DNA from: Gammaproteobacteria bacterium
GTDB lineage: Bacteria; Pseudomonadota; Gammaproteobacteria; Granulosicoccales; Granulosicoccaceae
Direction: 5' to 3'
Assembly: GCA_002746645.1 (NCBI GenBank)
Contig: PDPU01000010.1
Coordinates: 2,947 to 66,946, forward strand
DNA: 64,000 bases
A model generated the notes under the pieces. That model saw nothing but the letters and a program-made list of their open reading frames with translations, ran no database searches and was not told the DNA's origin. The translations under genes were made by a program, and so were the position numbers. The first letter of the stretch is position 1; each line of letters begins with the position of its first letter. Shown here piece by piece: positions 26,232 through 45,777 of this stretch.

Positions 26232-27932
26232 ATGAGCGAAAACACGAAAACCCGCCTTCCAGGTATTGCGAGACACCTTATCGGGTGCAAGCTCTTGGAT
26301 GAAGAAAGTGCTTTCGAGTTGGCCAGCAAGGCCAATAGTGACAAGGTTTCGTTTCTATCTGCAGCCGTAGAGCAACTCGACACAAAGCAGGTTGCGGAAA
26401 TATCCGCCAGAGACTTCGGCATGCCCTGTTTCGATCTGTCCTCGATCGATACAGACAGCCTTCCCCAGTCAGTGCTACAAGAAGAATTATTGAACGCTCA
26501 TGAAGCTGTTCCTCTGGTCGCCAAAGGCAACCGCCTTTACATCGGCATAGCCGACCCCACAAGCACCGAGGCAGCCGACAAGTACAAGTTCGCCTCAGGC
26601 ATGAGCGTCGAGACCGTCATTGTTGAACACGACAAGCTGCTGGAACTGAGATCGAAGGTACTCGAAGGCAATTCGGCCCTTGACGATGAGGCGCTTGACG
26701 ACAGCTTTGATCTCGATGTCGGCGATGACAGGGAAACCGAACAGGAGGTCGACAGCTCCGATCTGGACGACACACCGATTGTTCGATACGTGAACAAGGT
26801 CCTTCTTGATGCGATCAAGCGCGGGGCTTCGGATATCCACATCGAACCCTACGAAAAGCTGTTCCGTATTCGTTACCGCATCGACGGTATGCTGCAGGAA
26901 GTCGCCAAGCCGCCTCTGAACATGGCAGGTCGACTGACCGCGCGAGTCAAGGTCATGTCTCGAATGGACATTTCCGAACGACGCGTCCCGCAGGATGGTC
27001 GCATCAAGCTGAAACTGTCCAAGACCAAGGCAATCGACTTCCGTGTCAATACCTGCCCGACACTCTTCGGCGAAAAGACCGTACTGCGAATTCTCGATCC
27101 GAGCAGCGCACAGCTGGGTATCGACGCTCTCGGCTACGAGCCGGAGCAGAAACAACTCTATCTCGATGCTCTCGCGAACCCCTACGGGATGATCCTGGTA
27201 ACAGGCCCGACCGGAAGCGGCAAGACGGTTTCGCTCTATACGGGTCTGAACATCCTCAACGAGCCGAGCACCAACATTTCAACCGCGGAAGACCCGGCCG
27301 AAATCAATCTGGCGGGCATCAATCAGGTCAACGTGAACCCCAAGGCCGGGCTGACCTTTGCCGAAGCGCTGAAGTCATTCCTGCGTCAGGACCCTGACGT
27401 TGTCATGGTGGGTGAGATTCGAGACCTCGAAACCGCCAGCATTGCCGTCAAGGCAGCACAGACGGGCCACCTCGTCCTTTCCACACTGCACACGAACGAC
27501 GCACCGCAAACGCTGTCACGCCTCATCAACATGGGCGTTCCGGCATTCAACATTGCAACCGCCGTATCGCTGATCATCGCTCAGCGTCTCGGCCGCCGAT
27601 TGTGTGAGGCCTGCAAGGCTCCCGAGGATGACATTCCGAGACAAGTACTTCTGGAAGAAGGGTTCAAGGAAGAGGATCTTGACGGCCTCCAACTCTACAA
27701 GGCTGTCGGCTGCAGGAAGTGCAATGGTGGTTACAAGGGCCGCGTCGGCATCTATCAGGTGATGAAGATCAGCGAAGAGATCTCGAAGATCATCATGGAA
27801 GGCGGCAACGCCATCGACATTGCCGAACAGGCCAGGAAAGAAGGCATTCCCGATCTTCGCGAGTCTGCGCTGCTCAAGGTCAAACAGGGAATCATGAGCC
27901 TCGAAGAGGCCAACCGCGTAACAAAGGACTAG
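26232..27932 (+). CDS. pilB: Type IV pilus assembly ATPase PilB
   Basis: ASDIHIEPYE, GPTGSGKT, LRQDPDVVMVGEIRD, STLHTND, tetracysteine motif. Confidence 0.96.
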   Translation: MSENTKTRLPGIARHLIGCKLLDEESAFELASKANSDKVSFLSAAVEQLDTKQVAEISARDFGMPCFDLSSIDTDSLPQSVLQEELLNAHEAVPLVAKGNRLYIGIADPTSTEAADKYKFASGMSVETVIVEHDKLLELRSKVLEGNSALDDEALDDSFDLDVGDDRETEQEVDSSDLDDTPIVRYVNKVLLDAIKRGASDIHIEPYEKLFRIRYRIDGMLQEVAKPPLNMAGRLTARVKVMSRMDISERRVPQDGRIKLKLSKTKAIDFRVNTCPTLFGEKTVLRILDPSSAQLGIDALGYEPEQKQLYLDALANPYGMILVTGPTGSGKTVSLYTGLNILNEPSTNISTAEDPAEINLAGINQVNVNPKAGLTFAEALKSFLRQDPDVVMVGEIRDLETASIAVKAAQTGHLVLSTLHTNDAPQTLSRLINMGVPAFNIATAVSLIIAQRLGRRLCEACKAPEDDIPRQVLLEEGFKEEDLDGLQLYKAVGCRKCNGGYKGRVGIYQVMKISEEISKIIMEGGNAIDIAEQARKEGIPDLRESALLKVKQGIMSLEEANRVTKD

Positions 27933-29153
27933 ATGATGGCGACTAAAGCAGCAAGCTCGAACATCATGTTCGAGTGGGAAGGAAAGAACGCCAAGGGCGC
28001 AAAGCAGAAAGGGATCATTTCGAGCCCCAGTGCAGAGCTGGTCAAGGCCAGACTGCGCCGACAGGGCATCATCCCAACGAAAATCAGGAAGCAGCGCCAG
28101 ACTCTGGGGCGTGGCTCCAAGATCACACCGTCCGATATTGCTCTGTTCGCACGCCAGCTCACTACCATGATGGGCGCGGGTGTGCCCATGGTGCAGGCAT
28201 TCGAGATCGTCGGCAACGGTGTCGAAAACAAGGCCATGCGCGACATGATCGCGGATATCAAAACCGAGGTGGAATCCGGCAGCAATCTCACCAATGCACT
28301 TCGCAAACATCCCGAACAGTTTGACAATCTGTTCTGCAGCCTGACCGAAGCCGGTGAACAATCCGGTACGCTCGAATCCCTTCTCGGCGAAATCGCAACC
28401 TACAAGGAAAAGTCCGAATCGCTGAAGAAGAAGATCAAGAAGGCCATGTTCTACCCTGTTGCAGTCCTGATTGTCGCCTTCATCGTGACCGCCATCCTGC
28501 TGGTATTCGTGGTTCCGCAGTTCGAATCCTTGTTCGAGGGCATGGGCGGAGACCTGCCGGCGTTCACGCAAATGATCGTCCACGCCTCCGAGTGGATGCA
28601 GAAGTGGTGGTATGTCATGTTTGGCGGAATCGGCGTTGCGGTCTGGGGGTTCATCGAAGCGAAAAAGCGATCCAGGGCATTCTCCGAACTTCTGGACCGA
28701 CTTGCACTGAAAGCCCCGGTCTTCGGAGAAATCGTCGTCAAGTCCGCCATCGCGCGCTTTGCTCGCACGCTGGCCACCATGTCGAAAGCCGGTGTCCCGC
28801 TCGTTGAAGCCATGGATTCTGTCGCGGGCGTGGCCGGCAACTCCGTGTTCGAACGCGCGATTCTGAAGATGAAGGACGAAGCTGCCACCGGCCAGAACCT
28901 CCAGACGTCCATCCAGAACTCCGGCCTGTTCTCCAACATGGTCGTGCAGATGGTGGCAATCGGTGAGGAATCGGGCTCGATCGACGACATGCTGTCCAAG
29001 GTCGCCGACTACTACGAAGAAGAAGTCGACAACGCCGTCGATGCCATGACCTCTCTCATGGAACCGATGATCATGGCCTTCCTCGGTGTCGTCATCGGTG
29101 GTCTCGTGGTGGGCATGTACCTGCCGATCTTCAAGATGGGCGATGCGTTCTGA
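27933..29153 (+). CDS. pilC: Type IV pilus platform protein PilC
   Basis: FARQL.TM..AGVP, GE.SG.L, KKAMFYP, MYLPIFKMG. Confidence 0.95.
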   Translation: MMATKAASSNIMFEWEGKNAKGAKQKGIISSPSAELVKARLRRQGIIPTKIRKQRQTLGRGSKITPSDIALFARQLTTMMGAGVPMVQAFEIVGNGVENKAMRDMIADIKTEVESGSNLTNALRKHPEQFDNLFCSLTEAGEQSGTLESLLGEIATYKEKSESLKKKIKKAMFYPVAVLIVAFIVTAILLVFVVPQFESLFEGMGGDLPAFTQMIVHASEWMQKWWYVMFGGIGVAVWGFIEAKKRSRAFSELLDRLALKAPVFGEIVVKSAIARFARTLATMSKAGVPLVEAMDSVAGVAGNSVFERAILKMKDEAATGQNLQTSIQNSGLFSNMVVQMVAIGEESGSIDDMLSKVADYYEEEVDNAVDAMTSLMEPMIMAFLGVVIGGLVVGMYLPIFKMGDAF

Positions 29154-29198
29154 GGTCGTTTCGTTGCCGCCAATTCGATGAACGGCCATACTGCTGCC

Positions 29199-30149
29199 AT
29201 GACACTGATCTCCACCATCCAGGCATCACCCGCGCTCTTCTACCTCATCGTCGGCTTCGTGAGCCTGATGGTGGGCAGCTTCCTGAACGTGGTCATCCAT
29301 CGCCTGCCGATCATGATGGAGCGTGCCTGGCGTGAGGGGCTGGCGGAACTCGATGCGGTCGACGGCGAGTTGGATACCGTAGCCAACGCCGACAACGGCG
29401 CCGAGACCAGCACCGACAACGACGCCGAGACCAGCATCGAAACCGGCACCCAGGCCAACACCAGAACCGACGTCTTCAACCTCGCCGTGCCCCGCTCGTG
29501 CTGCCCGAACTGTGGCCACCAGATCACGGCGCTCGAAAACATCCCGGTGCTGAGCTATCTCGTGCTGGGCGGCAAGTGTTCCAGTTGCAGAACACCGATC
29601 TCGGTTCGCTACCCCATCGTCGAATTCGTGACGATGCTGCTGTCGCTCATCGTTGCCTGGCAGCTCGGCCCGACGCCGCAGGCAGTGCTCGGCATCATCG
29701 TCACCTGGTTCCTCGTGGCCATGTCGATGATCGACTTCGACCATCAGCTCCTGCCCGACAACCTGACCCTGCCACTCATGTGGATCGGGCTGCTCGCGGC
29801 GCTCGTGCCTGTGCTTGCCGACCTACGCTCGGCCGTGATCGGCGCCGCCGCCGGTTATCTGATTCTCTGGAGCATCTTTCAGCTCTTCAGGCTCGTCACG
29901 GGCAAGGAAGGCATGGGCTACGGCGACTTCAAGCTCCTCGCGGCCCTGGGTGCGCTCCTCGGCTGGCAGGCGCTGCCGATGGTGATTCTGCTATCGTCTC
30001 TCGTGGGTGCGGTCGTCGGCATCGCCATCATCATGGTCACCGGGCGGGACAGGAACATCCCCATTCCCTTCGGGCCCTATCTCGCCGCCGCGGGCTGGAT
30101 CGCGATGCTCTGGGGTGACGGCATCATGCGCTGGTATCAGGGGTTCTGA
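29199..30149 (+). CDS. pilD: Prepilin peptidase/N-methyltransferase PilD
   Basis: GSFLNVVIHRLP, two CxxC pairs, IDFDHQLLPD, GMGYGDFKL, PFGPYLA. Confidence 0.95.
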   Translation: MTLISTIQASPALFYLIVGFVSLMVGSFLNVVIHRLPIMMERAWREGLAELDAVDGELDTVANADNGAETSTDNDAETSIETGTQANTRTDVFNLAVPRSCCPNCGHQITALENIPVLSYLVLGGKCSSCRTPISVRYPIVEFVTMLLSLIVAWQLGPTPQAVLGIIVTWFLVAMSMIDFDHQLLPDNLTLPLMWIGLLAALVPVLADLRSAVIGAAAGYLILWSIFQLFRLVTGKEGMGYGDFKLLAALGALLGWQALPMVILLSSLVGAVVGIAIIMVTGRDRNIPIPFGPYLAAAGWIAMLWGDGIMRWYQGF

Positions 30150-33078: not shown

Positions 33079-35601
33079 ATGCCTGCCAAGCACCTCGCGC
33101 GGCGATCACGCCGGCGACATTCATCCCGCGTCTTTCTGTCACTGGTCTTTCTGGTGTCTGCAACATTCGCCGCCCTGTCCACTTCGGCAGCCACCCGTGA
33201 TTCGGGCGCGCCTGACAACAGCTGCCCGACAGACCCCGCACCCGGGTCCGCCTGTGCAAGCGGCACAGACGTCGGCGTCGCGGCACGTTCCCTCGGGCCG
33301 AACCGCCACGTCGGCAACCCGATCGACGCCATCTCCGGCAACAAGTACCAGTTCGCACAGGACTTCAAGGCCGTCGGCTCGCCACTCGCGTTCGCTCGGC
33401 ACTACAACAGCTCCCTCGCCGACTACGACATCGGGCTCGGTCACGGCTGGCGACACAGCTACAACATGCGCCTCAGCCGACAGGATGCACTTACGCTGAG
33501 CCTTGTCCAGGCCGACGGGCGCGTGCTTCTGTTTCAACGGCAAAACGAAACCGAAACACACTACCGCTCCGCCACCAGAGAATACGGTGATGTCGTCGAC
33601 ATCGGCAATCATCGCCATCAATGGCAACTGCCGAGTGGCGAGCGCTACGAATTCCTCGGTAGCTGGCTGGTCGAAATCATTGGCGCGGATCCCGACAGCC
33701 AGCGACTGAGCCTCTTCTATCGCAACCAGCGCCTGCACAGCGTCACCGACAACTACGGGCGAACGATCGTACTGCACTACACCCCCGGCGAGCGGGGCGG
33801 CATCCCGCGCTACGGCGACGCTCAACGCCAGGCCGGCCATCTCGAAGCCCTCGAATTGCCCGATGGCAGCCGTGTGGAATACCGCTACGACGGCTTCAAC
33901 CTAGCAACCGTGGCCTACCAGTCCGCGAACGCCGGCGCTGCATATTCACACGAATCGGCGAACGACGCCGACGCCAACACCGACGATGGATCACTCACCT
34001 TCTCCGCCCACGGCGAAACAGACGACATCGCCGCCGGCATCGTCGCCGGTATCGCGGAAAACGAACTCACCCGTTACGCCTACGACGACGCCATCCACCC
34101 ACACTACCTGACGCGGCAGGTCACGACCGTCGACATCGGCAACGCGACGAACCGGGAAACACGCTCCTGGACCTACGACGATGCCGGACGCGCCATCACG
34201 TACTCGGAAAACGGCACGACGCAGCTCTCCATCAACTACGGTGAAACACAGCCCTTCGCGGTCGAGGGCATATCGACCGTGCGCCATCACGAGACGGGCC
34301 TCGTCGAGAGCTACGAGTGGTCCCGGGCGGGCGCGACGGGCGATGCCCGAGTCGAGCGCATCCTGCGCCAGCCCTGCAACGACTGTACGTCTGTCACCGT
34401 GTTCGAGCGACAGGCCAGTGTCGCTGCCGTTGATCGGGAAAACACCACCACGGATTCGGGCACAGCCGCATCTTCAGGTACGAGCAACGATACGGACATC
34501 GGTACGAACAACGATGCGAATTACGGTGCGGGCATCGGTGCAGACATCGGTGCAGATGCAATGGTCAACGCCGGGCAGACCTCAGCCAATCCGCTGCCGG
34601 TTCTGAGGCTTGTCTCGACCGATGGACTCGACACCGTCTTCGAAGACCGGTTCGGATACCGATATGCCATCACGGCGAATCGACAGGGGCGGGTTGTCGC
34701 TGTTCGCCGGCAGGAAACCGGCGGACCGAAGCTCAGGATTGACGAATTCGGAGAAGCGATGGACCTTGCCACGGTGGCCGCTGTTGCGGAGTCCAGTGGC
34801 GGGATCACACCGCGCGCACTCGGCCTCCCGAACCTCAATCGACGCTTTTGCCGAATTCCGGACAACACGACCTGTGAGGAAATGAAGCGTGCTCAGGAAC
34901 TCGCCCTGCTTGCCGAATGCGCCTACGCCGAGGTAACTTGTCCATCGGAATGGCAGACCATTACACCGGCATCAATAGGATTCAACCCCGAGGATTTCGA
35001 GACAGGGGGGTTCTTTGCCAAACTCCTCTACAACGCCTCGACAGGCGAATACGTGCTTTCCTTTCGCGGCACGGATGACAGGGTCGACTGGCAGGAAGAC
35101 ATAATACAGAACATGGGCGTGCTTACGGATCAATATCAGCAGGCACACGATCTGGCAATAAAGGTAACCGAGTATCTAGGCTCACCGCCGACCTACGCAG
35201 GGCACTCTCTGGGTGGAGGTCTGGCCACGACAGCCGCACTCTCGACCAGTGGTCACGCCACGGTATTCAACTCGGCATCCCTGCACCCCGACACCGCTGC
35301 ACAACTGGAAATCAGCCGCGACGGGGCAGAACAGCAGGTGGTCAACTATCACGTCAAAGGCGAAGTCGTTACGGAACTTCAGGACAACGGTCGCGTACCT
35401 GGATCGTTCCTCAGGCCCCTTCTCCCTTTTACCATCACCGCAGTTGACATAATAACTGTTGCGAACCCGGCACCTGGTCAACGTGTCGAGATTGAACCCG
35501 TATCCATCATCAATCCATCGGGTATCAAAAGACATTACATGGCATCGGTTCTCGATTCCCTTGAATACCACCTCCGTTACGGCTGCGGAAAGACACCATG
35601 A
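33079..35601 (+). CDS. Exported DUF6531/YD-repeat (truncated RHS) protein with a C-terminal PhlA-like phospholipase toxin domain
   Basis: Signal peptide; VGNPIDAISGNKYQ...PLAFARHYNS...GLGHGWRHSY; a few YD repeats; C-terminal YVLSFRGTDD..DW, QYQQA, GHSLGGGLA..AAL, TVFN, late His. Confidence 0.8.
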   Translation: MPAKHLARRSRRRHSSRVFLSLVFLVSATFAALSTSAATRDSGAPDNSCPTDPAPGSACASGTDVGVAARSLGPNRHVGNPIDAISGNKYQFAQDFKAVGSPLAFARHYNSSLADYDIGLGHGWRHSYNMRLSRQDALTLSLVQADGRVLLFQRQNETETHYRSATREYGDVVDIGNHRHQWQLPSGERYEFLGSWLVEIIGADPDSQRLSLFYRNQRLHSVTDNYGRTIVLHYTPGERGGIPRYGDAQRQAGHLEALELPDGSRVEYRYDGFNLATVAYQSANAGAAYSHESANDADANTDDGSLTFSAHGETDDIAAGIVAGIAENELTRYAYDDAIHPHYLTRQVTTVDIGNATNRETRSWTYDDAGRAITYSENGTTQLSINYGETQPFAVEGISTVRHHETGLVESYEWSRAGATGDARVERILRQPCNDCTSVTVFERQASVAAVDRENTTTDSGTAASSGTSNDTDIGTNNDANYGAGIGADIGADAMVNAGQTSANPLPVLRLVSTDGLDTVFEDRFGYRYAITANRQGRVVAVRRQETGGPKLRIDEFGEAMDLATVAAVAESSGGITPRALGLPNLNRRFCRIPDNTTCEEMKRAQELALLAECAYAEVTCPSEWQTITPASIGFNPEDFETGGFFAKLLYNASTGEYVLSFRGTDDRVDWQEDIIQNMGVLTDQYQQAHDLAIKVTEYLGSPPTYAGHSLGGGLATTAALSTSGHATVFNSASLHPDTAAQLEISRDGAEQQVVNYHVKGEVVTELQDNGRVPGSFLRPLLPFTITAVDIITVANPAPGQRVEIEPVSIINPSGIKRHYMASVLDSLEYHLRYGCGKTP

Positions 35602-36320
35602 AAAACACCTTTTACCAACTGGCTCTTGTTCTCACCTTTGTTGCGTCAGCTCTTGTACCAACGACAGACGTCCTGGCAGGCAACAACACCGGCCCGAACT
35701 CGACGAAATGGACTGATGAAGAGGTCGCGTTTCTTTACGAACCGAATGGCAAGCAGGCGCATCACGATCTGCTGGCTGCGATTCACTACTTCGACAAGAA
35801 GCGTTTTGATGCTGCACTGGAAGCCATTACCGACGCTTCCTATCTGGCGGATCCGTACAACCCTCGAGAAAACGCGCTTTGTACAGCAACGGTCAAGGGC
35901 AAATCGTACGCCTTGCAGGCACTGCTGGACAAGGGTGCCGACCCGAACTTCCATCACGAATTCAGTGACGGCAGTCAGACACGACTACCGTTGACCTGTG
36001 CATTGTATTTTCAGAACGACGATGCATTCTTCGCACTGGTGGAGGCCGGGGCAGACATTCATCTTGACCAGACCCTCCGTGAAAGCAAGGGACTCACGCC
36101 GTATTCCCTATTCAGTGCAGCATCATCCACACCCTCGAGAACAGCCAAGTACCTGCTCGAAAACGCCAGAATCACCGAAAATGACCTGGGAGTCGTGAGA
36201 CTCAAGGTCGAACTCACGCGCCACAAGAAGGACAGCGAATACGGCCGCTGGTTCCTGCGCCTCGCACGCCTGCTCGAGGAGCGCGGCGTGGAGTTCACCT
36301 TGCCGCCGCAGCTCCGATAG
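35598..36320 (+). CDS. Exported ankyrin-repeat protein, probable PhlB-like immunity protein
   Basis: Signal peptide ending VLA; ankyrin-like ALLDKGADPN and ALVEAGADI; ATGA overlap with the toxin stop. Confidence 0.72.
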   Translation: MKNTFYQLALVLTFVASALVPTTDVLAGNNTGPNSTKWTDEEVAFLYEPNGKQAHHDLLAAIHYFDKKRFDAALEAITDASYLADPYNPRENALCTATVKGKSYALQALLDKGADPNFHHEFSDGSQTRLPLTCALYFQNDDAFFALVEAGADIHLDQTLRESKGLTPYSLFSAASSTPSRTAKYLLENARITENDLGVVRLKVELTRHKKDSEYGRWFLRLARLLEERGVEFTLPPQLR

Positions 36321-41272: not shown

Positions 41273-41893
41273 TCAGAGATACTCGATGCTGTTCCAGCTG
41301 CGTCGTATCTGGCCGCTGAGATGTGGCATCTTGCCCGCCAGTGTCTGCATCTGAAGCAGCATTGGCCCCCGTACGCCATCCCAACCGATGAACACCTTCA
41401 TGTCAACCGGGTAATCTTCGTTGCGCGAGCGAAAATCCAGTTCGTAACCCTTGAGAACACCATAGGTTCTGGCTCTCGTTTTCAGGGCTGCAGCCTGCTC
41501 TCTTGTAGCGCCGTACTGCATCGCGCCCTGCCGCAGAGCGGTTTGTGCGACCTGTTCGAACTCCTGCGCATCCATTGGCATGTGTTCAAAGCTCGTGACA
41601 CTCATCGTTGCAGGTGGATAGACATTGAGCGGTGTGTTGGCGGTGAAAATCGGTTTCTTTCCTCTCCAGAGTTTTCCGACTTCCCATGCCGGAGACGTTT
41701 CGACAACGATTCTGATGCCGAGGTCTTCATCATGAAAGACACCGACCGGACGCGCCTTGCGCTTTTCCACAGCCACCGGCAAACGATCGGAATCAGAACT
41801 CGCTTCGTGTTTGGCTGCGGATTCGGCAACCAGAAGAACAGGCAAGACGGCGCAGGCAAAGACAACCACGACCGTGGCAACAATGCGTCTCAT
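41273..41893 (-). CDS. Exported hypothetical protein, last gene of the TadE-toxin operon
   Basis: Signal peptide MRRIVATVVVVFACAVLPVLLVA; ATGA overlap with the upstream immunity copy. Confidence 0.65.
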   Translation of the reverse strand: MRRIVATVVVVFACAVLPVLLVAESAAKHEASSDSDRLPVAVEKRKARPVGVFHDEDLGIRIVVETSPAWEVGKLWRGKKPIFTANTPLNVYPPATMSVTSFEHMPMDAQEFEQVAQTALRQGAMQYGATREQAAALKTRARTYGVLKGYELDFRSRNEDYPVDMKVFIGWDGVRGPMLLQMQTLAGKMPHLSGQIRRSWNSIEYL

Positions 41894-42497
41894 GTTCCAA
41901 TCCTCCCCTTGAGCAGACTTTCCATTTCCCGCACCTGCTCCAGTTGATCGTCGACATCACGATACGGACTCTCGACATCAAGTACGACGAGACTCCCGGC
42001 ACCACTGGTCATCCAGCCAAGATCGTCTGACGGCGCGTATTCCTGCTCGTTTTTCCTCTCGACAAAGTAGGCATGAGACCTTCCATACCCCACCTTGATC
42101 TTCCAGATACTCGAATAGGTTTCGAACAGAAAGCGCCCTGTGCCTTCCGGGTCCGGAAGATAGTCCTTGAATGAAAAAACGCAGGTTGACCCGCTCACCC
42201 CGACCGCATAACCCATCAACAGATAGGGCTCGTCGAAACTGCCGACGGAATAATTCAGATCAAACATCGTGCCAATACCCGATACCATCTTGTCCTCATC
42301 GGGAATATAATCGGCATCCCGGAATGCCAGATCATATACCTGATTTCTGGCACGATCAGCATCACGTTCAATCCTGATGAACTCGACTTCCACCTCCTCG
42401 CCATTCCTGCCACCAGCTTATTTACATATTCGTCCAGCACCATGCCATCGGTGTCAATATACAACACGAAATTTAACATTTTGGTTATGTCTTTCAT
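41890..42497 (-). pseudogene. Second immunity-gene copy, frameshifted by a 19-bp deletion
   Basis: MKDITKMLNFVLYIDTDGMVLDEYVNKLV, then loss of agacttcacggatcctgca relative to copy 1; the remainder (ORF 41890-42393) is highly similar to 42602-43225. Confidence 0.82.
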
Positions 42498-42601
42498 TGA
42501 CTTTCTCCGCTTTCTGCTGCAATTTATTGCAGACTCGACAACCTGGCGAACAGGCAAGACGGCGCAGGTGAAGACAATTACGACCGTGACGACAATGCGC
42601 T

Positions 42602-43225
42602 TCAAATTCTAATTTTCCCGTTGAGCAGACTTTCCATTTCCCGCACCTGCTCCAGTTGATCGTCGACATCACGATACGGACTCTCGACATCAAGTACGAC
42701 GAGACTCCCGGCACCACTGATCCAGCCAAGATTATTTGATGGCGCGTATTCCTGTTCGTTTTTCCTCTCGACAACGTAGGCATGGGACCTGCCATACCCC
42801 ACCTCGACATTCCATATACTCGAATAGGCTTCGAACAGAAAGCGCCCTGTGCCTTCCGGGTCCGGGAGATAATCCTTGAATGAAAAAACGCAGGTTGACC
42901 CACTCACCCCGACCGCATAACCCATCAACAGATAAGGCTCGTCGAAACTGCCGACAGAACACCTCAAGTGAAACATCCTACCAATATCCAACACCAACTG
43001 ATCCTCATCGGGAATATATTCGGCATCCCGGAATGCCAGATCATATACCTGATTTCTGGCACGATCAGCATCACGTTCAATCCTGATGAACTCGACTTCC
43101 ACCTCCTCGCCATTCCTGTGCAGGATCCGTGAAGTCTCCACCAGCTTATTTACATATTCGTCCAGCACCATGCCTTCGACATCAAAATGCAAGGTGAAAT
43201 TCAGCACTCTGGTTCTATCTATCAT
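42602..43225 (-). CDS. Putative cognate immunity protein of the nuclease toxin
   Basis: 207 aa, acidic, no signal peptide, ATGA-coupled to the toxin stop, and duplicated downstream. Confidence 0.72.
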   Translation of the reverse strand: MIDRTRVLNFTLHFDVEGMVLDEYVNKLVETSRILHRNGEEVEVEFIRIERDADRARNQVYDLAFRDAEYIPDEDQLVLDIGRMFHLRCSVGSFDEPYLLMGYAVGVSGSTCVFSFKDYLPDPEGTGRFLFEAYSSIWNVEVGYGRSHAYVVERKNEQEYAPSNNLGWISGAGSLVVLDVESPYRDVDDQLEQVREMESLLNGKIRI

Positions 43226-45627
43226 TGATCCTTTCCGTTTTCTGCCACAACTCGAATGTCCAGACCCAGATCCTGGAAATCATGTGATTCTATCTCCATG
43301 TCTTGACGATACCGCTGCAAATCCATATTTAAATCATCTTCCAGAGCCCTTATAAGGGACATTTTTGCCTCCTCAGTATGAACCACAATATCCAGTCTGT
43401 ATCCAGATTCTCTTGCAATCCTGAGCTCCTGGACCAACGAATCTATTTCGATATCCATCAGGAAATCGTTTTCCAGAGTTGCACTGGTATAACGCTTGAC
43501 TTCCGTCACCATGCGGCTCAGGAGATTCACGTCATCAAACCATTTTTTACCGGCATCGTTCTCGATGAAGTATTCCATCCCGATCGGAATCCCGGTTACC
43601 TCCTCCTGATACTGCAGGGCCTTGTTGTTCGGATCCCTTGGTTCCGAAGGGTATCCAAAGAAACCCGGCCCGATCGTGCCGTCTGAATAAACACCGCTTT
43701 GATTCTCGAGCAAATGCGGGTTTTCAAGCTCATCCGGATTTCCGAGATAACGCTCGTAAACATCGAAGCAGTTGACATTATGCACCCATACTCCTGCATC
43801 GCCAACAAAGTAGCTCTGGTTGTTCGCCACACTGAAGTTGTAGACATCGATCGGTTCGTCAACCACTTGCTTCTCAAGCACCACTTCATCACCGGTCGCA
43901 GTGGCCACGATGTCATAGGCTTTCAGTTCAGTGGCAGAAACCCAGCCCTTTCCCTGTACCCAGAAAGGATGCTCTTCCGTTACACGCAGCAAGAGCCGCT
44001 CTGTCTGCAACTCCAGATAGCGCTTGGCCTGTCGCGAATACAGATGTGTCACCGCTTCGGTACTGTCGAAGTAATGGAACTCATTCCGCGAGAGCACCTG
44101 ATTTCCTACTTCTATATCTTCGATTGACTTCAACCCTGTCGGCGTCCAGACCCGGGTACCGGCCGCGAAACTGCTCGCACAAATCACCTCCTCAGGCACG
44201 TTTCGCTCTCGTGCCAGTTCTGCGCGTGTTTCCGATGCCGCCCGTGTCAGATCACGGTAACGCCCAAGCTTCACCGTCAGCTTGACCACCGCGCCACCGG
44301 AAACATAGGAGCCGATGATGCGCCCCTTGTCGTAGGGACCACAACCCTCAAGATCACTGACGTCCTGATTGATGTTCTGATTGATGATCGACCCGAGCGT
44401 GGCAACGGTGCCGGCGAAATCATGGTAGAACGCCTTGCCGAGTTCGATCAGTCCAGCAAGGGTTTCTTCGGGATTGGTGACGAGTTCCCAGACATCTTCG
44501 ATCTGACTCCATATCCCATTGATGAAGCCTTGCACGAACTCGACTGCAGCAGGCACAACCGCGGTTACAACTCGATTGAGCAGACTGCGTCGCTCATCAT
44601 CATGCGCGTGAGCCTCTTCCGGTTCCAGAGCATCTGCCTCTTCGCACTGTGGCTCCGGCCGATTTTCCCATTTCGGCGGAACCCCTGTAGTGCAGTCCCA
44701 CTGAACACCGGCTCTCAGGCTGATTCCGGTCTCGGACTCCTCGTATGCCGTGGTGGGGCAGGATTGCACACCGTCAGCACCATCACCGGGAAGGCCGTTG
44801 TCGGTGAAATCGTTTTCGACACCGCCAGCCCCTTCAAGCAGCGAGTTGAAGCTGTCGCTGTTGTCACTCAGGGGTGAAGTATCAGCGACCGGACTGGTAT
44901 TGCCTGTTGCTGCCTCGTCGTCAGCAACCTGCGCCTCGGCCATGCTCGCCTCAGCCTGTTCGATTTCGTCCTTCCAGGCCGATGATTGCATGCGCACCGT
45001 GGCGACAGCTGTCAGCGGTATCTGGTTCTGCTCGTAGTAATAATGGTTGTCGGGGTCGATCGCCCTCATCGCGAGGGCGAGCGCTCTTCCGACCAGCGGC
45101 ACCTTCAGATCGAAACCGTACTTGACCTTGATCTTGAGGATGTTCGCGTCGCGAATGGACAATCCCGAGGCATTGCCGATCTCGTTTCCCTGATGGCGAA
45201 GATGACTGTTCGGAATGATCCTGCGCCCGCTGTCCAGTTCTTCGACACCCCAGTCATCGAAGGCTGCAAGGGTAGGGTTGATGATTTCGATGCGGGTTCG
45301 AAGGGGGTCCCCGACCATCAATCTTGATCGAACAATTGCTGCCGCCGCCTTGTCTGCGCTGCCGTCACCACCCAGCAATGGCGCCAGACGAAGACCCAGC
45401 TCGTGCCGCATCCTGTCCACACGCGCATTGTGTGTGGCCCCTGTTCTTGCCGCCTCGAAAGTTGCGTAGTTGAGTGTGGTCTTGCCGTGATAAATGAAGC
45501 TGACCTGAAGAGTGGCAAGACCGATGCCGAGAAGAATGGGCACGGCAATGGCGAATTCGCTCAGAGATCCCTTCTGACGATTGCCTCGCTTGATGGCGCC
45601 TGAAAGGCGCAACATTCCAGTGTCCAT
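43222..45627 (-). CDS. TadE-like pseudopilin / pre-toxin / Hint / Tox-REase-5-like polymorphic toxin
   Basis: N-terminus QKG-SLSEFAIAVPILLGIGL..LQ...LNYATFEAARTGA (TadE). Hint SFAAGT.V.T..G.KSIEDI..G..V, TEEHPFWV..KGWV.A..L, VYNFSV....YFVG..GVWVHN (44172-43777). C-terminus YQEEVTG....EY...FDD....TEVKRY. Confidence 0.82.
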   Translation of the reverse strand: MDTGMLRLSGAIKRGNRQKGSLSEFAIAVPILLGIGLATLQVSFIYHGKTTLNYATFEAARTGATHNARVDRMRHELGLRLAPLLGGDGSADKAAAAIVRSRLMVGDPLRTRIEIINPTLAAFDDWGVEELDSGRRIIPNSHLRHQGNEIGNASGLSIRDANILKIKVKYGFDLKVPLVGRALALAMRAIDPDNHYYYEQNQIPLTAVATVRMQSSAWKDEIEQAEASMAEAQVADDEAATGNTSPVADTSPLSDNSDSFNSLLEGAGGVENDFTDNGLPGDGADGVQSCPTTAYEESETGISLRAGVQWDCTTGVPPKWENRPEPQCEEADALEPEEAHAHDDERRSLLNRVVTAVVPAAVEFVQGFINGIWSQIEDVWELVTNPEETLAGLIELGKAFYHDFAGTVATLGSIINQNINQDVSDLEGCGPYDKGRIIGSYVSGGAVVKLTVKLGRYRDLTRAASETRAELARERNVPEEVICASSFAAGTRVWTPTGLKSIEDIEVGNQVLSRNEFHYFDSTEAVTHLYSRQAKRYLELQTERLLLRVTEEHPFWVQGKGWVSATELKAYDIVATATGDEVVLEKQVVDEPIDVYNFSVANNQSYFVGDAGVWVHNVNCFDVYERYLGNPDELENPHLLENQSGVYSDGTIGPGFFGYPSEPRDPNNKALQYQEEVTGIPIGMEYFIENDAGKKWFDDVNLLSRMVTEVKRYTSATLENDFLMDIEIDSLVQELRIARESGYRLDIVVHTEEAKMSLIRALEDDLNMDLQRYRQDMEIESHDFQDLGLDIRVVAENGKDQ

Positions 45628-45777
45628 CTTTGAATTCCCGAACAAACCTGTCGACGACGGGAACCGGCCATGCCTTGTCGACCACTACCGCAAGAACCGG
45701 ACTCCCGAAGGAGCTAACGCGCGGGCACTGGAATTCTGACAGCCAAGCCATGGCGGATCGTGAGGCGGCCGACATCA

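Follow-up and report, generated by a model that had tools for sequence, protein, structure and literature searches.

A Tad minor-pilin module as the candidate trafficking domain of a polymorphic toxin family in Gammaproteobacteria

The toxin gene and the closest described systems

Polymorphic toxins are classed by the machine that exports them. Here, we analyze a gene in which a TadE-type pseudopilin is continued by an autoprocessing HINT domain and a putative nuclease; it lies in a 64,000-nucleotide stretch (hereafter the window) of contig PDPU01000010.1 from a member of the Granulosicoccaceae (assembly GCA_002746645.1). We favor, with moderate confidence, the hypothesis that the product of this gene is a polymorphic toxin, that a TadE-type minor pilin serves this toxin as its trafficking domain, and that the Tad machine it uses is encoded elsewhere in the genome.

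Judged by published descriptions, the nearest functional analog is probably Kil of Myxococcus xanthus. Kil is a Tad-like contact-killing pilus with interchangeable tips formed by KilL, KilM, and KilN, which are TadE/F/G-like (Seef 2021, PMC8460266; Herrou 2025, PMC12075869). It is reported as confined to predatory lineages and acts with a needleless type III secretion system (T3SS), and its toxin is not identified in these studies (PMC8460266; PMC12075869). The features in common are an ATPase with an N-terminal FHA domain (FHA-CpaF is recognized as "class III" CpaF) in a system that lacks TadZ, minor pilins with variable C-terminal modules, a role in antagonism that is putative in our case, and the presence of several paralogous minor-pilin sets per genome, some of them encoded off the machine locus. 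In contrast to the Kil papers, which mention no HINT domain or pilin-fused toxin (PMC8460266; PMC12075869), we find a TadE homolog fused to a predicted self-cleaving domain and a recognizable nuclease, accompanied by a candidate immunity gene, in non-predatory marine Gammaproteobacteria.

The gene likewise resembles the PT-HINT polymorphic toxins of Zhang et al. 2012 (PMC3482391): a conserved N-terminal trafficking part is followed by PT-HINT and a hypervariable toxin, an immunity gene is adjacent, immunity copies are stacked or degenerate, and the toxin and immunity tip is low in GC. The searched part of that paper catalogs PT-HINT, Tox-REase-5, and Imm52, and names as routes the type II, type V, type VI, and type VII secretion systems (T2SS, T5SS, T6SS, and T7SS), PVC, PrsW, and MuF, with no mention of a pilin or pilus (PMC3482391). 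The difference from those systems would be that the trafficking domain is here a type IV (Tad) pseudopilin. A further parallel is offered by the evolved components of the T6SS, that is, VgrG, PAAR, and Rhs proteins with toxin extensions, in which a structural tip part occurs either bare or with swappable toxins and satellite toxin–immunity islands (the orphan VgrG/Rhs islands) lie apart from the main cluster; RHS-fused variants also occur in the TadE family, although the machine is a contractile sheath in the one case and would be a Tad pilus in the other. Finally, cargo-bearing or modular minor pilins are exemplified by V. cholerae TcpB, which docks TcpF, by the pseudopilin tips of the T2SS, and by S. 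sanguinis PilB (as cited in PMC12075869). These share with the proposed system a minor pilin at the filament tip that carries or presents an effector module; as they are described in the citing text, however, what they carry is either a distinct protein or an adhesin module, and never a self-cleaving toxin with an immunity partner.

A preliminary description of this DNA, made from its letters and a list of reading frames, had not recognized a Tad-pilin route among the classical polymorphic-toxin delivery systems, and we indeed found no description of a TadE-led, Tad-led, or pilin-led polymorphic toxin in the literature that we searched in full text. Judged from sequence, the system is best filed as a polymorphic toxin system with a Tad minor-pilin trafficking module, and not yet as a demonstrated secretion route.

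The toxin gene itself is an intact minus-strand open reading frame (ORF) that runs for 807 codons from a TTG at 45645, with alternative in-frame ATG starts at 45627 and 45615; the former is the start chosen in the preliminary description, and the latter is that of an identical gene call in public data, P0002 (797 aa). The preliminary description had divided this frame into five parts, namely a prepilin-like N-terminus with a TadE-type domain, an acidic linker containing cysteines, a helical region, a complete Hint domain that ends in HN, and a nuclease-like C-terminus. All five are located where it had put them (table 1), including the final HN at nucleotide 43777, and the observed TadE-HINT-nuclease ORF is confirmed as real and intact.

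The assignment of the N-terminus to TadE, which had been left to a comparison with pilin profiles, holds by profile and by predicted fold. Residues 29-67 match PF07811 with 35 bits against a cut-off of 22.9 (39 bits in a genome-wide search), and the AlphaFold2 (AF2) model of the pilin module (predicted local distance difference test, pLDDT, 91.5) consists of a helix at residues 5-51 and then strands. In the ESM Atlas the module matches a TadE cluster of 659 members of ~306 aa with a template modeling (TM) score of 0.96, another TadE cluster at 0.89, and, further, TadE-DUF192 fusions and TadG-like proteins. A Foldseek search of the PDB with the module returned no match at E <= 0.001, and the best rows were prolidases (E >= 0.055).

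The linker resembles the acidic tail with about three cysteines that closes the stand-alone short forms of the TadE-module family. The helical pre-HINT module is also present in HINT toxins led by a Sec signal (P0038 and P0045) or by a Flp-like leader (P0052). In P0038 and P0045, a plain Sec signal stands where the TadE module would be; in P0052 (691 aa), the TadE module is replaced by the Flp-like leader and a short pilin helix (QRGAGSVEF...), downstream of which the same cassette of linker, pre-HINT, HINT, and toxin follows.

The PT-HINT domain is recognized by PF07591 over residues 499-623 (E 5e-20). Among 41 distinct relatives, TxxH and HN are invariant (41/41) and the first cysteine is kept in at least 34, as it is in the window copy. 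The residue that follows HN in these relatives is Ala, Thr, or Val, so C-terminal cleavage fits better than splicing. We considered and rejected an intein or bacterial intein-like (BIL) splicing element, given Val or Ala at +1 after HN and flanks that are unrelated modules.

The C-terminal domain is rare: an exhaustive comparison with 1.84 billion representatives by phmmer brought up no more than four relatives of it (E 5e-5 to 8e-4), all of which match PF15648 (Tox-REase-5), three of them above the cut-off. The window sequence itself scores only 13 bits against PF15648 (E 0.16; cut-off 25), reaches 17.9 bits with DUF6310, which is also below the Pfam cut-off, and matches nothing in NCBIfam. 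In a BLASTP comparison with the Tox-REase-5 tail of P0024 (E 5e-5), the YQ..TG, EY, FD, and (D/E)xK motifs are aligned; in the window copy these are Y679-Q680, T684-G685, E691-Y692, F703-D704, and E715-V-K717. An alignment of nine sequences leaves T684, G685, P687, E691, Y692, F703, D704, and K717 invariant. The AF2 model of the domain (pLDDT 76, core >90) finds its best structural match in the PDB, by Foldseek, in TseT (9oz0_B, E 8.8e-6; 7dym_A, E 2e-3), followed by CdiA-CT and Mus81-type PD-(D/E)xK nucleases, and a profile built from the alignment matches both TseT entries (E 2e-3), which were deposited as "Tox-REase-5 domain-containing protein". TseT, which forms with TsiT an effector and immunity pair of the P. 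aeruginosa H2-T6SS (PDB 7dym, 9oz0), shares the YQ..TG, EY, FD, and (D/E)xK motifs, although it is only 14% identical to the window toxin and is delivered by a T6SS. By transitive homology and similarity to the fold of TseT, the C-terminus is a probable divergent Tox-REase-5-like PD-(D/E)xK nuclease. The Tox-REase-5 signature that the preliminary description had read here thus stands as far as motifs, fold, and profile are concerned, whereas the direct Pfam score is below threshold; because that score is only 13 bits, we speak of a divergent relative and not of a family member by the curated threshold.

Table 1. Positions of the toxin gene, its parts, and associated features (window coordinates unless a locus is given)
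Feature	Coordinates	Strand	Details
Whole toxin ORF	43222..45645	-	TadE pseudopilin, linker, pre-HINT, PT-HINT, Tox-REase-5-like nuclease (putative)
Prepilin-type leader	45568..45645	-	Basic, isoelectric point (pI) 11.7; ends R-Q-K-G26, then S-L-S-E30-F
TadE-type pilin module	44980..45567	-	Residues 27-222; 47-residue N-terminal helix and beta-sheet head; Pfam, AF2, ESM Atlas
Acidic low-complexity linker	44596..44979	-	Residues 223-350; pI 4.05; Cys 296/318/334
Helical pre-HINT module	44182..44595	-	Residues ~351-488; conserved, without Pfam family
PT-HINT autoprocessing domain	43777..44181	-	Cys489, T556-x-x-H559, H622-N623; PF07591
Variable C-terminal toxin domain	43225..43776	-	Residues 624-807 (184 aa); E691, D704, E715-x-K717
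Candidate immunity gene	42602..43225	-	207 aa; pI 4.57; without signal peptide; ATG overlaps toxin stop (ATGA)
Degenerate tandem duplicate	41816..42522	-	~89% identical to unit 42528-43250
Secreted accessory protein	41273..41893	-	206 aa; signal peptide; PsbP/DcrB-like predicted fold; alignment A1, Atlas search
Accessory homolog	L006:1735-2298		
Accessory homolog	L009:13117-13689		
Accessory homolog	L010:13063-13641		
Peptidase_A24 core of PilD	29694..30023	+	Sole A24 peptidase found in the MAG; candidate processing enzyme
PilB-like ATPase gene and pilD	26766-30023	+	Type IVa pilus genes
Second toxin island	33079-36320	+	Between secA and the next core genes

The TadE subfamily and its Tad operons

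A protein database search returned ~30 proteins that combine TadE, PT-HINT, and a variable tail, with Ca. Thiodiazotropha, G. antarcticus, and Chromatiaceae among the carriers, and it also returned TadE–RHS fusions. The tails that Pfam can name are AHH, Endonuclea_NS_2, a YwqJ-type deaminase, WHH with colicin DNase, and Tox-REase-5; several others are unnamed. Clustering of 50 HINT-type proteins gave 21 unrelated C-terminal classes, and pairs of proteins with pilin modules that are 92-98% identical carry unrelated C-termini, which is the pattern of variable C-termini on conserved N-termini that the preliminary description had named as a check. The pilin module is conserved at 40-68% identity.

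When one genome of each GTDB species was scanned with a pattern, 369 stretches that encode the module came to light, and the counts that follow refer to the best 77 loci with their 84 ORFs. These best loci are distributed over Granulosicoccaceae, Thiodiazotropha, Marinobacter, Pseudomonadales, Oleiphilaceae, Agarilytica, Chromatiales, Thiotrichales, and Burkholderiales. Short forms of ~300-450 aa, in which the pilin module is followed only by an acidic tail with mostly about three cysteines, account for 34 of the 84 ORFs; HINT forms (pilin module, HINT, and toxin) account for 20 and RHS forms (pilin module and RHS, with complete ORFs of up to ~2,350 aa) for 26, and four ORFs are cut by contig ends. 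Among the forms that have 8 kb or more of sequence on their upstream side, a CpaF gene precedes 23 of 25 short, 10 of 13 HINT, and 11 of 16 RHS forms, and the FHA region was aligned in 44 of the 51 CpaF loci. This TadE subfamily is normally the last gene of an FHA-CpaF Tad operon, and the toxin is an optional C-terminal extension of it. Orphan copies such as that of the window are a minority.

The source genome, a metagenome-assembled genome (MAG) of 3.02 Mb in 49 contigs that is 82.7% complete, has three TadE matches, among them two full TadE-HINT genes. The second of the full genes, on contig C6 (17303-19660, 785 aa), encodes TadE, PT-HINT, and an AHH nuclease and comes last in a row of genes on the same strand for a Flp-like pilin, an 849-aa TadG-like protein, a 275-aa TadF-like pseudopilin (G/SALTE motif), a 230-aa secreted protein, RcpC/CpaB, a secretin, an FHA-CpaF ATPase, TadB, TadC, a lipoprotein, and DUF192. 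The secretin gene directly adjoins the ATPase gene, whose product matches FHA (E 2.8e-14) and T2SSE (E 1.3e-63); the N-terminal FHA domain of the CpaF/KilF ATPase and the absence of TadZ are features that the C6 machine shares with the Kil type. Since no other PF07811 member is encoded in this operon, the toxin fusion is that machine's TadE. The preliminary description had pointed to the rest of the genome as the place where Tad genes might be found, and a complete Tad locus does lie on C6, with a paralog of the window toxin as the terminal gene of the operon. The two toxins are 49% identical over residues 23-626, and the homology stops right after WVHN. Behind the C6 toxin gene lie three paralogous 221-aa genes, a 193-aa gene, and a gene for a secreted 188-aa protein. 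The third TadE-toxin copy is found at the end of contig C8 (L008:11045-11542), after a LysR-type gene; its frame shifts after ~95 codons and the contig ends within the pilin module, and it represents a pseudogene or else an error of the assembly.

The same layout recurs in G. antarcticus (protein P0010, at about 2.097 Mb of CP018632) and in a MAG of Thiodiazotropha, where a TadE-HINT-AHH gene ends an operon that encodes a TadG-like protein, two small proteins, RcpC, a secretin, FHA-CpaF, TadB, TadC, a small protein, DUF192, and a TPR protein. At both loci the toxin gene is followed by an immunity-type gene, which in Thiodiazotropha is Imm11. In these operons the DUF192 gene can stand immediately upstream of the TadE gene (L006:7747-8277), and TadE-DUF192 fusions from other bacteria form two ESM Atlas clusters of 118 and 129 members, which suggests that DUF192 and the TadE minor pilin are functionally partnered.

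Proposed delivery and its alternatives

The architecture of the protein, the conservation of its catalytic residues, the polymorphism of its C-terminus, the operon linkage of the family, and the insertion of the island are direct observations, and the interpretation that the preliminary description had given to the toxin gene is supported. We propose a model in which the prepilin-like N-terminus would be inserted in the inner membrane by Sec and the signal recognition particle (SRP), leaving the remainder in the periplasm, where the DNase would spare the producer. The leader would be trimmed by a prepilin peptidase, for which PilD is the candidate, and the pilin module would dock with the TadF-like and TadG-like pseudopilins of the C6 FHA-CpaF machine at or near the tip of the Flp filament. 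This machine would move the linker-HINT-toxin extension outward via the secretin, and cyclization of Asn623 in the HINT domain would free the 184-aa Tox-REase-5-like DNase. The released DNase would then enter a neighbor by a further step and kill bacteria without the cognate immunity protein, and siblings would be protected by the cytoplasmic product of the candidate immunity gene. The window copy would represent a horizontally shuffled satellite cassette made up of toxin gene, immunity gene, and accessory gene.

The operon linkage and the pilin module would fit equally well with a T2SS-like use of the machine, in which the TadE module loads a short pseudopilus, the extension leaves through the secretin, and HINT frees a soluble nuclease with no display or contact, possibly for the scavenging of extracellular DNA or other nutrients or for diffusible antagonism. 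Such a release into the medium is the main rival to pilus-borne delivery, and it may gain from the Sec-signal family members P0038 and P0045, which would need piston-type export, and from the fact that T2SS-like behavior has been raised for Kil (Herrou 2025, PMC12075869). We nevertheless regard it as unlikely, given that immunity genes of the cytoplasmic type, their stacked copies, and the extreme polymorphism of the C-termini mark cell-to-cell antagonism between relatives rather than scavenging, and that a covalent pilin fusion is needless for T2SS-type cargo. Two other readings, in which the N-terminus is no more than a signal-anchor or the window copy is a relic, are less likely than this one.

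Incorporation into a pilus, as the preferred model has it, is also consistent with a predicted complex. The window pilin module and the 275-aa TadF-like pseudopilin of C6 were modeled together with an ipSAE of 0.71 (best control 0.00); the benchmark mark for this score, attained by 58 of 80 solved complexes and by 2 of 110 mismatched pairs, is a rough guide only, as our own alignments were used. The runs agree in at least 92% of contacts, the partner has a pLDDT of at least 82, and the modeled contacts extend along both N-terminal helices and from head to head. The model lends support to binding of the pilin module to the TadF-like pseudopilin but is no proof of it.

Several points weigh against the hypothesis of Tad-dependent delivery. 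The window copy is remote from Tad genes: as the preliminary description had accurately cautioned, there are none in the window, and the gene sits between lpxC and a DUF721 gene. Its leader also departs from the family consensus (R/K)-Q-x-G + x4-E-[FLM], which is the canonical Tad prepilin motif. Across the family, Glu is at +5 in 64 of the 71 ORFs with a readable motif and at +4 in 5; the window copy keeps G26 and the hydrophobic helix and has its Glu at +4 (G-SLSE-F), a second caveat of the preliminary description that proved accurate. Four of the five +4 ORFs are HINT forms of Granulosicoccus like the window copy; this Granulosicoccus HINT subgroup, which includes all copies in the MAG, reads G-SLSE and departs from the canonical +5. 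A dedicated TadV/CpaA-type peptidase was found neither beside the C6 Tad locus nor elsewhere in the MAG nor in three near-complete congeners. PilD is the only A24 peptidase in these genomes and hence the only candidate processing enzyme; its gene lies with that of a PilB-like ATPase ~13 kb from the toxin island, and the three near-complete Granulosicoccus genomes possess Tad loci, yet have PilD as their sole A24 prepilin peptidase. The controls of the complex prediction were unrelated proteins and not pilins, so generic bundling of hydrophobic pilin helices could have inflated the score. Within the genus, the module is present in 35 of 47 genomes, mostly as one short form, and since most congeners thus have only the toxin-less form, the Tad machine clearly has a function that is independent of toxins. 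To these points we add the sub-threshold Tox-REase-5 score of the C-terminus and the passage of the nuclease across the envelope of the target, which the model leaves unexplained. Finally, Tad dependence, processing of the leader, incorporation into the pilus, cleavage, toxicity, and delivery by contact are steps that we infer from sequence.

Some of the same points would be accommodated if the TadE-like N-terminus were a mere signal-anchor, so that the protein is exported by Sec, stays at the inner membrane or in the periplasm, and is released without Tad by vesicles, by lysis, or by another system. The window copy and other orphans that have no Tad gene inside a 10-kb range (3 of the 13 HINT and 5 of the 16 RHS forms), the Glu at +4 in the window copy, and the lack of a dedicated TadV peptidase would all agree with this explanation. 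Yet the conservation at 40-68% identity covers a full pilin head domain beyond the hydrophobic helix, the default genomic place of the module is the end of a Tad operon, and the confident model with the TadF-like pseudopilin involves both helix and head. Another exporter of the T6SS type also leaves no sign, as no Hcp was found in this 83%-complete MAG. Taken together, we consider a mere signal-anchor quite improbable. Delivery as T6SS cargo was a separate candidate, and it was rejected given the lack of Hcp in the MAG and of PAAR, VgrG, or MIX domains in the toxin protein.

The toxin island and what it implies

Downstream of the toxin gene lies the translationally coupled acidic gene that the preliminary description had noted, and both its coupling and its acidity are borne out (table 1). 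Its product has no sequence match in Pfam, NCBIfam, or the PDB. In the ESM Atlas it matches Imm52 clusters by language-model features (0.90) and by predicted structure (TM 0.68), and the Imm52/TsiV-like similarity comes from the Atlas only. Imm52 was paired with Tox-REase-5 by Zhang et al. 2012 (PMC3482391), and the Imm52-like identity of this candidate immunity protein is a coherent lead. A unit of ~710 nt has been duplicated in tandem; it comprises the immunity gene together with the last ~9 codons of the toxin gene on one side and 26 codons from the start of the following gene on the other. The second copy has suffered indels that disrupt its frame and leave it as two ORFs, 42255-42605 and 41890-42393.

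The next gene encodes the secreted accessory protein. Its homologs (~190-206 aa, without a Pfam family) follow immunity genes at the C6, G. antarcticus, and Thiodiazotropha loci, and in the survey the gene lies downstream of 12 of 14 HINT forms, of none of the 11 RHS forms, and of 1 of the 23 short forms. Since its presence goes with the constant HINT cassette rather than with the variable toxin, an accessory role is more likely for its product than one in immunity.

The genes of the window are ordered ftsQ-ftsA-ftsZ-lpxC, island, DUF721, M23 peptidase, and secA. The gap between lpxC and secA measures 6.7 kb here versus 1.6-1.9 kb in four congeners, in which the 4.4-kb toxin island is absent from this site, and the window copy is an inserted satellite island. 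GC content is 63% in the flanking lpxC and DUF721 genes, 57% in the pilin module, 53% in HINT, 47% in the toxin domain, 49% in the immunity gene, and 55% in the accessory gene. A scan of the island for promoters and terminators yielded nothing that exceeded shuffled expectation.

The distance of the window copy from the machinery, the frameshifted duplicate of the immunity gene next to it, and the third copy that is frameshifted or cut at the end of C8 could be taken to mean that a toxin cassette was once duplicated and that the window copy is its inactive relic, with no present function. However, the 807-codon frame of the window copy is intact, all catalytic residues of the HINT and nuclease domains are kept, the first immunity gene is undamaged and coupled in translation to the toxin gene, and the conserved accessory gene is still present, and we consider a relic very improbable.

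A second toxin island of the window contains a gene for a "mini-RHS" protein (840 aa) with a Sec signal, a Cys pair, a DUF6531-type start, and a GHSLGG lipase-like C-terminus, followed by a gene for a 240-aa protein with a signal peptide. The RHS part of the mini-RHS protein is homologous to that of the TadE-RHS fusion P0041 (E 2e-21), and the protein may likewise be a cargo of the same Tad machine.

It is possible, although we would put it slightly short of an even chance, that Tad (type IVc) pili serve generally to deliver polymorphic toxins, a route not recognized before, with the terminal TadE of FHA-CpaF operons as a carrier that is either bare or loaded with HINT-released or RHS-encapsulated toxins and with satellite cassettes that re-arm the same pilus. 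A class of pilus-borne polymorphic toxins does not appear in the literature searched. The interest of the finding is high, given a specific hypothesis, a widespread family, and the availability of a cultured carrier. In this family, a Tad minor pilin is naturally and covalently joined to recognizable nucleases, to a deaminase, or to RHS cages, with immunity genes in each case. As most of the genes close a Tad operon, the idea of the pilus tip as a weapon becomes directly testable, and G. antarcticus IMCC3135 is a carrier that is cultured and fully sequenced. The analysis also flags two unstudied conserved parts, namely the pre-HINT helical module and the PsbP/DcrB-like accessory protein. If true, a general Tad route would give a molecular answer to the question of contact killing by Kil-like Tad systems and would operate in free-living marine bacteria as well as in the symbionts of lucinid clams (Ca. 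Thiodiazotropha). These considerations suggest that the Tad loci of symbionts and environmental bacteria may serve competition besides adhesion.

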